Shown here one piece after another: positions 27,058-36,086 of a stretch of DNA of 64,000 bases. Position 1 is the first letter of the stretch. Each line of letters starts with the position of its first letter. The notes under the pieces are model-generated. The model made no database searches and was not told the origin of the DNA. It was given only the letters and a program-made list of their open reading frames with translations. The stretch is taken from positions 102,726 to 166,725 of the forward strand of contig OZ244716.1 of the NCBI GenBank assembly GCA_965219025.1, read 5' to 3'. The position numbers were made by a program, and so were the translations under genes. This DNA is from Dehalococcoidia bacterium. GTDB lineage: Bacteria; Chloroflexota; Dehalococcoidia; Lucifugimonadales; UBA2985.

Positions 27058-27709
27058 CTATGGTACGGGCCTGGCGCTATGGTATCCCTTGGCCAAAATC
27101 ACCATTCCCGCTATTCCCAAACCTGCTGCTACTGTAGCAACAAGGATCAAGCCGTACGGCAAGAGAGCGCTGATACCATCAAGCCCGCTTTCCAGCCAAG
27201 CAATCGAAGCCACCACTAAGAGTCCGTAGATAACCATTGGGATGGATAGAAGGGCTAATGGAGTGTCGATCGTCCTTCGAGCGATAAGAACGTATGCGAG
27301 TCCCACTCCCCACGGAATAGCGACAATGAACACACTGGCGGTTGCAGAAAGCAGAGGATAGAAGCTGATCAGCAAAGTGTCACCTCGCTCTATCACGTGG
27401 TTGCATAATCCGTCCAAGTACGACTCCGGTACTACCCAATGCGTAGCTAACCAGGACAGTGAGAGCAACGATGTTTAGTGTGACGTCGTGCCTCTCCACG
27501 AGTGATGGCGTGTGTCCGGAGACTACAATCACCAAAGTCGCCCAATCCAGGAGCAATGCCAGTTCCAACAGGGCAAAGCCGGCGATTGGGAGCAGGCTCT
27601 TGAATTGACAATCGGGATTACGACTTGTCAGCGATCTAAGGAAACCCCACACCACAGGCACTGTGATCGCCGCAGTGTATGTCGTATGAATGAGCAGGGC
27701 CGTGTTCAA
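27058..27709 (-). pseudogene. Multi-TM membrane protein, probably frameshifted (two overlapping hydrophobic ORFs)
   Basis: ORFs 27380-27709 (SD GAGGAG, TTG start) and 27058-27468 overlap by 89 bp, both hydrophobic; lower GC. Confidence 0.55.
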
Positions 27710-27750
27710 GGCCGTGACTCCTCAAGGTGGCGACGTATCAGCCGCTTAGT

Positions 27751-27775
27751 CGCGCAGTCCAGCAGGCTCAGGACG
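27751..27775 (+). repeat. 25-bp direct repeat, copy 2 (includes the stop codon of the DM13 gene)
   Basis: Identical to 27018-27042. Confidence 0.9.
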
Positions 27776-28673
27776 CGGAGAGCGGGGCCACGCTGAATAC
27801 CACTGAGAACGGCTTGCAGTAGATGATCACGCTGTTGAAGCCTGATACGTCCACGTCTGCGGGGATCGGGTAGTTCTGATTGCCACGGTTGCCCTTCAGC
27901 GGTCCCAGGTCCACGTACTCGTCGCTCTTGACGTCGCCTGAGTCTGCGGGGTCCGGATGTGACGCGAGCAAGACGTGGAGCGCCGGCCCGTTCGTCACGT
28001 TCAGGTCCTCCAGTCTCAGAATGTGGTTGCCTCCCGGCGTGGCGAAGATGGTGGCATCGCCGCTTCCGCGGTGAAAGCTGTCGGCGTCTCTGAACTGCCC
28101 CGCTGTCACGGCGCGCACCTCGCCCTGAGGGTTCGCAAGAGCCGACATGACCGGCTCCATCATGCCTGCGACCTGCTGCATGTCCTCTGTGCTCGCGCCG
28201 CTCATGGCAGCCGTGAGCGCCTCCGTTAGCGCTGCGACGTCGTCGGTCTTCATGGCCGTGATGGACTCGCCTGCCTCCATCATCGCTCCGGCATCGATGT
28301 GCGATGCGCCCGGCATCGACTCCGCCATCGCCGCATCATCCACCATCGCCATGCCGGCCATCACCTGCTCCACGTCCACACGCTCCATCCCCTCCGGCAC
28401 CACAGCCGTGTATGCGAACGGGAACTCCTCCTCCACCGTGACATTGGTGAACAGCGGCGACGCCATCCACCATCCCACCGCCAGCCCGACGATGACCGCA
28501 GGCACCCCGATCACGGCGGATGCGACCGGGTACCTCTGCAACACGACGTACCAGCGCAGCCTATAGGCTGCGTATAGAAACCCGGCAGCAGCGAGAATGG
28601 AGACTGCCCCAATGATGAAGCGATACTCGTACAGGCTGCCAAGGGCTTCTTCGATTTCACCCACGATTCCCAT
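27768..28673 (-). CDS. Membrane-anchored DM13-domain protein with Met-rich linker
   Basis: Two N-terminal TMs, SPLFTNVTVEEEFP, HRGSGDA, NGPALHVLL, DLGPLKGNRGNQNY, IYCKPFSVVF. Confidence 0.9.
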   Translation of the reverse strand: MGIVGEIEEALGSLYEYRFIIGAVSILAAAGFLYAAYRLRWYVVLQRYPVASAVIGVPAVIVGLAVGWWMASPLFTNVTVEEEFPFAYTAVVPEGMERVDVEQVMAGMAMVDDAAMAESMPGASHIDAGAMMEAGESITAMKTDDVAALTEALTAAMSGASTEDMQQVAGMMEPVMSALANPQGEVRAVTAGQFRDADSFHRGSGDATIFATPGGNHILRLEDLNVTNGPALHVLLASHPDPADSGDVKSDEYVDLGPLKGNRGNQNYPIPADVDVSGFNSVIIYCKPFSVVFSVAPLSAS

Positions 28674-32162: not shown

Positions 32163-32259
32163 GCGTCGCGGCTGCCCGCGGCCCATCACTCCAAGTTCGG
32201 CTGTCGCTCATGGCGAGCTTGCCGGATCATTCGAGCGACTAGACTGCAATTGGACCTGA

Positions 32260-32298
32260 CCCCGCTCATCCTGAGCTTGTCGAAGGAAATGGGCGGGG
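32260..32298. repeat. REP-like hairpin with TGAGCTTGTCGAA core
   Basis: CCCCGCTCAT-CCTGAGCTTGTCGAAGG-AA-ATGGGCGGGG; inverse of the core at 12165-12211. Confidence 0.72.
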
Positions 32299-32319
32299 TT
32301 TGCAAGGAGGTCAATGGGA

Positions 32320-33273
32320 ATGGTAGCGCTTGGTAGCGAGGCGCCGAATGAATTCAGCGGGAGAGGCGGCCGGGGGAGAGCGGTCCTAAGGATCATCCAT
32401 GCGGTGATGGCGTTGCCCGGTGCCCGGGTTGACCGTGCCGAGTTCCTAATGTCGCAACTTCACGTTCACTTCAATGAGGAACAGGTCAGGAAAGCAATCG
32501 AGTCTGGGCCTGGCTCCGCAGGCATACCCCTAGACGAGATTGACTCCATTGCCGATTCGGTTATCGGTTCTCATGTGGTGAGAGCGGCGGGCATTTCCTT
32601 CGCATCTGGACTGCCAGGCGGGTGGTTCATGGCGGCGACAATTCCCGCCGATGCTGTCCAGTTCTTCTGGCACGCGACCGTGCTTGCCCAGAAGTTGGCA
32701 TACTTATACGGATGGCCTGACTTCCTTGAGGAAGGCGACCTGGATGAGGAGACCGAGCTTCGCATCGCGTTGCTGCTTGGCGCGATGATGGGAGCAGCGA
32801 CAGCAAACGAGGTCTTGGCAGAAGTTGCCAAGCGTTTCGCCGGAGAGGCAACCCGCCGTATTCCACGGTATGCCCTCACGCAAACCGCGTACTACCCGTT
32901 GGTTAAGTCTGTGCTCAGGTGGGTCGGCGTTAGGGTCACTAAACAGTCCTTTGCGAAAGGCCTGTCCAAGGCAATACCTATCTTGGGAGGCGTGCTTTCT
33001 GCAGGTGTAACTGCTGTCACACTGCTCCCGATGGCTAGGCACCTGAAGAACCATCTCCGAACCTTGAAGTATGCGCAACTTGCGCTGGATGAGGGTACAC
33101 CCAATCAGGAAGATGCAGACAATGAGGCCTCAGAGCTTGTTGAAGACCCTGACGAATTGGAGTTAAGGGAAGAGTTCTCCGAAGAGTTGAGGGCTTCACT
33201 GGAAGCGGTGGCCAGCGGTAACCCAACCCTTCCCGCCAATCAGGTAGCCCAAAATCAAGGGCTATCTTGGTGA
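32320..33273 (+). CDS. EcsC-like protein with C-terminal antitoxin-like extension
   Basis: LPGARVDRAEFL, GLPGGWFMAATIPAD, QKLAYLYGWPD, KAIPILGGVLS; acidic tail DPDELELREEFSEELRASLEAVASG...VAQNQGLSW; SD AAGGAGG. Confidence 0.8.
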   Translation: MVALGSEAPNEFSGRGGRGRAVLRIIHAVMALPGARVDRAEFLMSQLHVHFNEEQVRKAIESGPGSAGIPLDEIDSIADSVIGSHVVRAAGISFASGLPGGWFMAATIPADAVQFFWHATVLAQKLAYLYGWPDFLEEGDLDEETELRIALLLGAMMGAATANEVLAEVAKRFAGEATRRIPRYALTQTAYYPLVKSVLRWVGVRVTKQSFAKGLSKAIPILGGVLSAGVTAVTLLPMARHLKNHLRTLKYAQLALDEGTPNQEDADNEASELVEDPDELELREEFSEELRASLEAVASGNPTLPANQVAQNQGLSW

Positions 33274-33536
33274 TGTACGAGGTTGAGTTCACGCGTGCCG
33301 CAGATGACGACCTTTCTCGCCTGGACAGAAATATAGCGCAGCAGGCGCTCGACAGACTACACTGGCTGGCTGACAATGCCGAATCAGTGCAGCACAGGGA
33401 ATTGAGTGGGCCCTGGAGCGGGGTATTTAGATTGCGGATTGGCGACTTCCGGGCCCTATACAGCTACGACAGGGCCGAGCGTAAGATCATTGTTCATTTC
33501 ATAAGGCATCGCAGTGAGATTTACAGACTCCGCTAA
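33273..33536 (+). CDS. RelE/ParE-family toxin
   Basis: MYEVEFTRAADDDLSRLD, FRLRIGDFRALY, HRSEIY; TGATG overlap with the upstream gene. Confidence 0.93.
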   Translation: MYEVEFTRAADDDLSRLDRNIAQQALDRLHWLADNAESVQHRELSGPWSGVFRLRIGDFRALYSYDRAERKIIVHFIRHRSEIYRLR

Positions 33537-33698
33537 TGCCTGCCAACAACTCACCCGGACGGTCAATCGAATTCATCTCACCACAAACAATGCGCAATCA
33601 CGGGTGTGTATACATGCATTGCGTTCGATAGGAGCGCCAAAATACGGCATCGCCATGACACCCAACAGCCCTGAGCTCCCGTCCCCCCGCCTAGACCC

Positions 33699-34940
33699 TT
33701 GAACTCCAGCAGCCGTTCCCTCTGGCAGTTCGCCAGCGCGCGGGGGATGAGCCGCCGCCGCTTCCTGAGTCTCATGGTGGCGGGCGGCTCCGCTGCCGTG
33801 CTCGCCGCATGCCTCGGAACAGAGGTGCCAACGGCCATGCCCTCACCTACCGGAACGCCGACGACGCCCGCGGAGGGGCCCGCCAGCCCCTACTTCAAGG
33901 ACCCAGCGCCCTTCATCGAGCGCGACGGCAAGGGGCTGGAAGCCCGCCTTGAGAACATGCAGGGCCTCATAACTCCCAATCGCTACTTCTTCGTTCGCAA
34001 CAACTCAACGAGCATCGGGCTGGACGCCGCCGACTGGCGGCTCTCGGTGGAGGGAGACGCCGTGTCGGAGCCTTTGGAGCTGACGTACGAGGACATCCGC
34101 AGCCTGCCCAGCCGTACGCTGATCTCCTACCTGGAGTGCGCCGGCAACCACCGCGCCATGTTCAACCTTCTGAACAGTCGTGAGACCTCCGGCACCCAGT
34201 GGACGAGGGGCGCGATCAGCAACGGTGAGTGGCTGGGAGCGACGCTGCGAGACGTACTGACCCTCGCCGGCATCGACGACGGCGCTGTCAGTGCGATGCT
34301 CGTGGGGCTGGACACCGAGTCGCCGGAGGAGGGCTTTCGATACGTCCTGCCGATGGAGAAGGCGATGCACCCGGACACTCTGCTCGCCTACGCCCTCAAC
34401 GGCGAGACGATTCCCAAGGACCACGGCTACCCGCTGAGGGCGGTGGTCCCTGGCTGGGTAGGTAGCTCGCACATCAAGTGGCTGGGACGCATCGTAGTTT
34501 CAAGCGAGCAGCTGTGGACGCGAAACAACACCACGTCCTACACGCTCATCGGCGACGAATATGCACCGGAGGGTGAGTCGATGGGCAAGCCGGTAACGGA
34601 GCAGGTCATCAAGAGCGCGCTGGCCTTGCCCTGGCCCGCGGAGCTTGCGGCCGGTCAGCGCCGCATCCACGGCTACGCCCACTCGCCCGGCGGTCCGATC
34701 TCACTCGTAGAGTGGAGCGCCGACTCCGGGCTGACTTGGCGCGCCGCAGAGCTGTCAGGCGGCCAGCCGGACTACTCATGGGCGCGGTTCGAGTTCGTGT
34801 GGGACGCGGCGCCGGGAGAGCACACGATCACGACTCGGGCCACTGACACGGCGGGCAACACGCAGGCTGACCACGTCCCCTACAACGAGAAGGGCTACCT
34901 GTTCAACCAACCTCTGCCCCACCCTGTACGAGTGGCGTAG
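33699..34940 (+). CDS. Sulfite oxidase-family molybdoenzyme, Tat lipoprotein
   Basis: SRRRFL Tat motif, LAAC lipobox, FFVRNN, ECAGN (Mo-ligating Cys), DHGYPLRAVVPGW, IKWL; start uncertain. Confidence 0.93.
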   Translation: MNSSSRSLWQFASARGMSRRRFLSLMVAGGSAAVLAACLGTEVPTAMPSPTGTPTTPAEGPASPYFKDPAPFIERDGKGLEARLENMQGLITPNRYFFVRNNSTSIGLDAADWRLSVEGDAVSEPLELTYEDIRSLPSRTLISYLECAGNHRAMFNLLNSRETSGTQWTRGAISNGEWLGATLRDVLTLAGIDDGAVSAMLVGLDTESPEEGFRYVLPMEKAMHPDTLLAYALNGETIPKDHGYPLRAVVPGWVGSSHIKWLGRIVVSSEQLWTRNNTTSYTLIGDEYAPEGESMGKPVTEQVIKSALALPWPAELAAGQRRIHGYAHSPGGPISLVEWSADSGLTWRAAELSGGQPDYSWARFEFVWDAAPGEHTITTRATDTAGNTQADHVPYNEKGYLFNQPLPHPVRVA

Positions 34941-35457: not shown

Positions 35458-35829
35458 TCAGACGCCCTCCAGTGCTCCCTGTCCAACCTCAGGTTCAGGC
35501 TGAGCAGCTTCCCGTTCAAGTGTTTCCTTTATCCAGCTGTTGATGCTCACGCCACCCTGCGCCGCAAGCGCGGCAACGCGGGAGTGAAGCTCGGGTCCGA
35601 GTCGCACGTTCAGCTTACCGGAGAAGGGCGGCTGCGGGTGAATACCTCTCTCTTCACAAACTGCCAGATACTCGTCAACCGACCTATGAAATTCCCTTCG
35701 GAGCGTATCCACGTCGGCAGCCTCGCAATTCGCGACGGGGTAGCCCCCGCTGCTGACCACGCTCCCATGGAGTAGTCGAACGGAATCGTCGTACTCTACC
35801 CTGGCGATGTATCCCTTATACTGCATCAC
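35458..35829 (-). CDS. hicB: HicB-family antitoxin
   Basis: MQYKGYIARVEYD, FHRSVDEYL, PFSGKLNVRLGPELH...SINSWI (RHH). Confidence 0.93.
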   Translation of the reverse strand: MMQYKGYIARVEYDDSVRLLHGSVVSSGGYPVANCEAADVDTLRREFHRSVDEYLAVCEERGIHPQPPFSGKLNVRLGPELHSRVAALAAQGGVSINSWIKETLEREAAQPEPEVGQGALEGV

Positions 35830-36086
35830 GGCGTAACTCCCAATAGCGTGAGGAATCTCATAATATTTCTTGCTGTTGATCTGGACGTTTCGGGCTGCGG
35901 ATGGGGCCGATGAACCACGTACACCCTTCCACCGCCTACCAGGGCAACACGGGAGCCGCCTCTCTCCTCAACCTCCACTCCTACCGCATGCAACAGTGAC
36001 TCAATCTCTGACCACCTGATGTCAGAAGGCGTTGGCCTTGCGAATATGCGCTCCAGGGTCCGGCGATGCCTTGCCCTCAGTTCCAT
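35826..36086 (-). CDS. hicA: HicA-family toxin
   Basis: RTLERIFARPT..IRWSEIESLL, GSRV, HRPHP; GTGA overlap with hicB. Confidence 0.93.
   Translation of the reverse strand: MELRARHRRTLERIFARPTPSDIRWSEIESLLHAVGVEVEERGGSRVALVGGGRVYVVHRPHPQPETSRSTARNIMRFLTLLGVTP

Follow-up and report, generated by a model that had tools for sequence, protein, structure and literature searches.

What restrains a RelE toxin whose gene is coupled, not to a small antitoxin gene, but to a long open reading frame (ORF)? The question is raised by a locus within a 64,000-nt stretch of Dehalococcoidia bacterium DNA (positions 102,726 to 166,725 of contig OZ244716.1, assembly GCA_965219025.1; this whole stretch is called the window), where a relE gene overlaps a 317-aa ORF. 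The usual picture of a type II antitoxin is that of a small DNA-binding protein. The 317-aa protein consists of a body belonging to the candidate defence family PDC-S30, an acidic linker, and a 50-residue C-terminal tail that recurs in front of toxin genes elsewhere. The locus is probably a real type II RelE pair in which the tail of the PDC-S30 fusion is the antitoxin, the fusion having arisen by a swap of cargo upstream of a fixed tail-relE module.

The toxin and its candidate antitoxin

The coupling of relE by TGATG to an ORF of about 317 aa, claimed in an earlier note made from the sequence alone, was confirmed: the overlap lies at 33271-33275, with the fusion stop codon TGA at 33271-33273 and the toxin ATG at 33273-33275. 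The toxin matches the Pfam family ParE_toxin (PF05016; 4e-11, over the cut-off) and, weakly, the NCBIfam model TIGR02385 RelE_StbE (1e-4). A profile of ten homologues searched against solved proteins found 2khe (1e-13), 3g5o/Rv2866 (4e-12), 9g12 ‘Toxin RelE’ (1e-7) and E. coli RelE (~1e-4), and no ParE entry at E<=1e-3; the single toxin sequence aligned end to end with three of these RelE-type proteins. Residues H79, R80 and Y84, which we take from the RelE literature to be catalytic, are invariant across the ten homologues, and the invariant positions, including the C-terminal H-R...Y, are kept in the window toxin.

Misassembly was ruled out as the source of the fusion, since in 4/4 runs (one study, possibly the source sample) single short-read contigs cross from 32262/32271 to 33650 without any difference. 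An independent, 78%-identical protein (P0002, known here from the protein alone) has the same linker, tail and junction. Judged by these sequences, the fusion is old enough to be common to the window and this relative.

The acidic linker and tail are present as the earlier note had quoted them, with a net charge of -15 across residues 253-317, and its view that the tail is the sole candidate antitoxin, and of a toxin-binding type, gained support. A tail profile found one copy in the 2.15-Mb genome (E<=1). No separate in-frame ATG, GTG or TTG start with a usable Shine-Dalgarno sequence exists in residues 225-300, as had been noted; the only TTG there, at residue 280, lies inside the DPD motif region described below. 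A downstream antitoxin was considered and rejected, since no family matches the 62-aa ORF at 33514-33702 and this ORF is not conserved in a genome of the same genus (G004), where the gene after relE follows at a distance of just 42 nt. With a single genomic copy, no separate start and no downstream candidate, the tail is the only candidate antitoxin.

When relatives were searched with the whole protein, matches to the tail alone were found within quite different ORFs, and DNA homology to these tail ORFs begins at 33112-33128 (blastn). A profile built from six tails and run against 1.84 billion proteins collected 121 members at E<=1e-3, mostly of 48-90 aa, with the motif at the C-terminal end and covered by no Pfam model. 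The motif comprises a conserved DPD-x-LEL, a glycine turn and a GL-x-W end, and the window tail has all 10 nearly invariant columns of the family. The tail matched no Pfam antitoxin family, the best being TacA1 at 0.059. A metagenome scan with the tail gave 493 pattern matches, 0 of them confirmed.

The genomic partners of the tail were examined at 23 species-genome loci, found with alignment A2 (the wider alignment A3 was too diverse for that search). In 19/23 the tail is immediately followed by an ORF of the RelE superfamily or a remnant of one, and in 4/23 by neither; the 19 comprise 9 intact ParE_toxin genes, 3 fragments with a Pfam match, 2 HigB-like genes and 5 that are frameshifted or cut. 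Among 401 evenly sampled genomes of the class, 10 contained the tail, and at 8/10 loci outside this genome a ParE_toxin ORF overlaps or abuts the tail. At two loci (L015:3935-4410 and L019:3893-4447) the gene after that of a small tail-family protein encodes a HigB-like toxin (PF05015) and not ParE_toxin; the tail family therefore has partners in two branches of the RelE superfamily.

Modelling of the tail with RelE, proposed in the earlier note, passed its controls. The complex of the 50-residue tail and RelE reached an ipSAE of 0.83 in three runs, and the best of 3 controls reached 0.01; the mark used is reached by 116/157 solved complexes and by 2/215 mismatched pairs. Partner predicted local distance difference test (pLDDT) values were >=78 and contact agreement was >=83%. 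Contacts were predicted between tail residues 12-50 and RelE residues 3-9, 11-33, 44-51, 62-64 and 73-85, so that the tail is predicted to bind this RelE.

Bodies that carry the tail and the site in relatives

In the closest genome of the same genus (G002) the site is empty: 63 nt lie between the two flanking genes, and the flanks are 95-97% identical (blastn against L133), which makes the 1539-nt block of the window an indel. In G004, at the same site, a 1125-aa protein with SNF2, Helicase_C and RapA_C domains has the tail at its end, and its gene overlaps that of a toxin which shares 72% identity with the toxin of the window. DNA homology between the window and G004 is confined to the flanks and to 33128-33524 (blastn). 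PADLOC scores the SNF2 protein as BrxHI/DrmD-like, and its architecture is similar to the RapA-like one of BrxHII that PMC12839542 describes.

This arrangement of SNF2 protein, tail and relE was found at six loci, in Dehalococcoidia/Chloroflexota species represented by metagenome-assembled genomes. Type III restriction-modification proteins of Mod type also end in the tail (P0170, 458 aa, and P0234, 183 aa; known here from the proteins), as do proteins with a ~190-aa unknown domain (L123, P0132, P0175), a 148-aa protein (L124) and the CopG-type protein P0189. The distance from the junction to the DPD motif differs between these bodies, and in the SNF2 fusions the junction lies only ~5 residues ahead of the motif. 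Decayed SNF2 genes hold the tail in frame: P0123 consists of residues 1-107 joined to 1075-1125, and P0135 of residues 546-675 joined to 921-1124. These sequences suggest that the frame-keeping deletions reflect selection and not chance, and selection for the tail alone would explain them too. A literature search found no published description of a tail-fused antitoxin arrangement, the available parts of PMC12839542 and 10.1101/2024.01.29.577857 included.

The site itself is variable. Five relatives hold at this site a minus-strand gene of 378-407 aa with no Pfam or PADLOC match (L004, L005, L008, L134, L135; in the first three at L004:267-1418, L005:270-1421 and L008:42-1265). In three relatives this gene (383-407 aa) is accompanied by an orphan tail ORF with no toxin, and in two it stands alone. 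Because the contents differ among relatives, the site is read as a hot spot at which the right-hand edge, the tail with or without relE, tends to stay and the cargo changes. No direct repeats indicating a target-site duplication were seen by eye at the block ends. The earlier note had offered a recent chimera with a replaced N-terminus as an alternative; replacement agrees with the SNF2-tail-relE arrangement at the same site in G004 and with the empty site in G002, but ‘recent’ is doubtful because the 78%-identical P0002 has the same junction.

The body was assigned by PADLOC to PDC-S30 at an E value of 2e-90 (positions 12-256 of the 268 in the profile), and it also matched PDC-S29, less strongly. 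The earlier note had called it EcsC-like, which holds as remote homology and not as membership: no Pfam or NCBIfam domain was found in the 317-aa protein at E<=1, and the Pfam EcsC model (PF12787) matched neither the fusion protein at E<=1 nor anything in the genome at E<=10, whereas a profile of 65 body homologues aligned with two Pfam-verified EcsC proteins over ~155 columns (hhalign 95.8%, E 8e-9; 94.1%, E 1.3e-7). In this alignment the motifs G-L-P-G-G ... Y-G and I-P-x-x-G-G are common to both, and neighbours of the body in the ESM Atlas carry the automatic name ‘EcsC family protein’. On sequence grounds the body is remote kin of EcsC, its exact family being PDC-S30.

AlphaFold predicts an all-helical body (pLDDT 69.6, predicted template modelling score 0.63), and hydropathy marks residues 218-238 as its single strongly hydrophobic segment, enough for a membrane helix. 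Foldseek gave no convincing match to the body in the Protein Data Bank (best E 0.5), and a wide VIA-align search gave a best Z of 5.8 (root-mean-square deviation 7.3, 129 aligned), under the chance level for helical models.

Among 8000 candidates scored, 461 homologues of PDC-S30 were found at E<=1e-3, the best 120 being mostly of 250-275 aa, and a metagenome scan with the body gave 474 confirmed stretches; most members of the family stand alone, with no toxin neighbour. A word-index search of proteins of 174-555 aa for the tail returned the window protein alone, and has little weight as it missed P0002. Neither body nor tail was found in viral contigs. Three PDC-S30 proteins (P0055, P0063, P0072; known here from the proteins alone) have an N-terminal HicB-like antitoxin domain (PF15919), and one source names such a protein as a HicB family antitoxin; together with the tail, these fusions indicate that the PDC-S30 body has been joined to antitoxin modules more than once. 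Two further PDC-S30 subfamilies were seen, one at gut metagenome loci (L043-L071) with a C-terminal domain of ~110-135 aa that weakly matches DUF533, and one at soil loci (L075-L112) with a conserved N-terminal stretch and a basic 53-aa C-terminal tail.

Layout of the locus and neighbouring features

The features of the locus are collected in Table 1. An alternative ATG at 32314 lies merely 3 nt from the AAGGAGG box. The linker has pLDDT values <50 at residues 259-275. The lower GC content of the block described in the earlier note was found again (0.52-0.60, against 0.63-0.71 in the flanks), and GC at third codon positions (GC3) is 0.61-0.64 in the fusion/relE pair and 0.82-0.88 in the flanks, the thiolase-like and molybdopterin oxidoreductase genes having 0.84-0.88. 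The hairpin ahead of the fusion ORF, likewise described there as a repetitive extragenic palindromic (REP) element, has a conserved 22-base core found 35 times in the genome when up to 3 mismatches are allowed; the reversed control gave 0 copies. The 96-nt fold containing it has an energy z-score of just -1.67, so that the REP-like reading derives from the repeat count and not from fold energy. Short-read contigs from four runs break at this hairpin at depths in the thousands; the repeat is therefore widespread in that community. A promoter and terminator scan gave nothing beyond what shuffled sequences gave.

Table 1 Features of the fusion-relE locus, in window coordinates
Feature	Position	Strand	Basis
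Variable block, 1539 nt, between thiolase-like and molybdopterin oxidoreductase genes	32180..33718	+	blastn against L133 (G002), GC dip, GC3
REP-like hairpin, one copy of a dispersed repeat family	~32257-32300	+	fold; repeat count
Shine-Dalgarno AAGGAGG	32304-32310	+	sequence; 9 nt ahead of ATG 32320
317-aa fusion ORF: PDC-S30/EcsC-like body, acidic linker and candidate antitoxin tail	32320..33273 incl. stop	+	ORF list; identical database protein P0001, 317 aa
Body, residues ~21-264	32380..33111	+	PADLOC PDC-S30, hhalign, AlphaFold, hydropathy
Acidic, predicted-disordered linker, residues ~253-275	33076..33144	+	pLDDT, blastn breakpoints, charge
Candidate antitoxin tail, last 50 residues, predicted RelE-binding module	33121..33270	+	alignments A2/A3, family scan, complex prediction, sole genome copy
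RelE/ParE-superfamily toxin ORF, 87 aa	33273..33536	+	PF05016, RelE-type solved relatives

A second toxin-antitoxin (TA) pair lies on the minus strand at 35461-36086, between the molybdopterin oxidoreductase gene and dnaN, and consists of a HicA toxin (35829-36086, PF07927) and a HicB antitoxin (35461-35829, PF05534) with GC3 of 0.57-0.62. Two small ORFs at 27061-27793, of 136 aa (minus strand) and 94 aa (plus strand), have GC3 of 0.55-0.60 and no Pfam match, and may be another small foreign islet.

Proposed mechanism, alternatives and known systems

In the proposed mechanism, the fusion gene and relE would be transcribed together, and the TGATG overlap would couple translation of relE to that of the fusion. 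The tail would then wrap RelE, pairing as an extra strand with the toxin's N-terminal beta-strand and shielding the catalytic C-terminal end, so that the neutralised toxin is held inactive and tethered to the body. The tail would be made only by ribosomes that have read the entire upstream ORF; because only whole-ORF translation yields it, RelE would be freed upon loss of fusion synthesis, whether synthesis stops or the body gene acquires a nonsense, frameshift or promoter-down mutation, and also if a presumably labile tail or linker is degraded. The net outcome would be addiction to an intact, expressed upstream gene, and the arrangement itself would have originated by replacement of cargo at a hypervariable site ahead of the fixed tail-relE module. 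At the least, we infer, the fusion makes control of the toxin depend on translation of the upstream gene to its full length, as addiction or policing. In a more speculative extension, which we would not favour at present, tail and relE form a portable ‘insurance cassette’: truncation or silencing of the upstream gene would free RelE and so police costly defence genes (SNF2 helicase, Type III methylase, PDC-S30), and rearrangements at the hot spot would survive only with some ORF in frame with the tail.

Several observations weigh against this reading of the locus as a working RelE pair. The binding of the tail to RelE is a model prediction, and the pass may partly reflect learned likeness because RelE-antitoxin complexes are among those solved; the tail has no solved relative, its best match (E 0.044, a surface protein) being judged chance. 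No DNA-binding domain was detected in the fusion antitoxin, and if residues 218-238 are a single membrane span they would put body and tail on opposite sides. The tail occurs on 2/120 of the best-listed body homologues (the window protein itself and P0002), and 0/80 metagenome PDC-S30 loci carry this tail or this toxin; the fusions of this body and the tail for which the earlier note had proposed a search are thus rare, although tail and relE recur on other bodies and misassembly is excluded, a divided outcome for the refuting condition which that note had set. Decay is common in the tail family, with toxin-less orphan tails (L011, L012, L018) and frameshifted toxins at at least 5 loci, so the window copy could also be on its way out. 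That the RelE or the tail has already lost its function, the ORFs persisting by chance, is nevertheless very unlikely: relatives often have an orphan tail or a broken toxin, but here both ORFs are intact, the TGATG overlap is kept, and the nearly invariant positions of the tail are present together with those of the toxin. Even less credible is a tail made separately, by internal initiation or cleavage of the linker, that acts as an ordinary small antitoxin behind a coupling that is only apparent. Stand-alone forms of 64-90 aa are the commonest in the family and the linker, predicted to be disordered, could be cut; no in-frame start with a Shine-Dalgarno sequence precedes the DPD motif, however, and in the SNF2 fusions the junction is just ~5 residues ahead of that motif, which counts against it.

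A possible but doubtful account is that of a neutral chimera, in which rearrangement at the hot spot fused PDC-S30 in frame to a small antitoxin ORF, the tail works, and all that the fusion provides is a start codon and a promoter. The linker, at residues ~258-275, is similar to the N-terminal portion of the 64-73-aa tail ORFs of relatives (P0121, P0122, P0125), so a small ORF appears to have been joined almost whole, and both the hypervariable site and the rarity of the PDC-S30-tail fusion agree with such an event. The junction is kept, however, in the 78%-identical homologue, independent fusions with different junctions exist on at least 4 other bodies, and the deletion derivatives hold frame, a point that counts less because selection for the tail would suffice for it. 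We think it unlikely that, as in the main reading of the earlier note, the body is an active sensor: one that detects phage or envelope stress and makes the tail release RelE through a shift in its conformation, location or stability, with abortive infection as the outcome. The body falls in a PADLOC candidate defence family, other tail bearers are also defence-type (the BrxHI/DrmD-like SNF2 helicase and the Type III Mod proteins), and the same body family is also fused to a HicB domain; but PDC-S30 is a candidate family only, for which the literature search found the name in genome surveys and no functional study (searches for EcsC gave nothing relevant), most of its members have no toxin nearby, no fold match hints at a sensing mechanism, and the tail is shared by very different bodies, which points to a role independent of the body's activity. 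The preferred reading remains the RelE pair with the fused tail as antitoxin. The toxin-binding piece by itself behaves as a movable tag on at least 5 unrelated bodies, several of them defence-type, and by its sequences appears to define a small antitoxin family outside Pfam coverage. If the tag works as predicted, it would offer a simple genetic route to dependence on full-length translation of a chosen gene, and would explain how defence genes at hot spots escape decay.

Among known systems, the pair is like type II TA systems of RelBE type in its PF05016 toxin with RelE-type solved relatives, in the upstream position of the antitoxin with a stop/start overlap, and in having a C-terminal module that is acidic, in part disordered and predicted to wrap the toxin. 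Antitoxins of RelBE/ParDE type are small and have a ribbon-helix-helix, helix-turn-helix, Phd/YefM or AbrB DNA-binding domain, whereas the protein described here has 317 aa and no such domain was detected in it; its toxin-binding part matches no Pfam antitoxin family and is grafted on an unrelated 250-aa domain. The small antitoxin of the PaaA2-ParE2 system, from E. coli O157, reportedly lacks a DNA-binding domain and wraps the toxin as a short helical peptide. Compared by description, the antitoxin module is a short peptide in both cases (stand-alone tail members have 64-75 aa), but here the peptide is fused to large proteins, with no sign of a separate regulator gene. The match of the body extends over nearly the whole PDC-S30 profile; a typical PDC-S30 protein, of 250-275 aa, has neither a tail nor a toxin neighbour, unlike the window protein with its tail and relE. 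CapRel is reportedly a fused toxin-antitoxin defence protein, and Panacea is said to be an antitoxin domain common to many partners. Like these, the tail is a modular antitoxin element with varied partners and links to phage defence; unlike them, the toxin stays a separate protein, and what varies is the body joined to the antitoxin and not the toxin.

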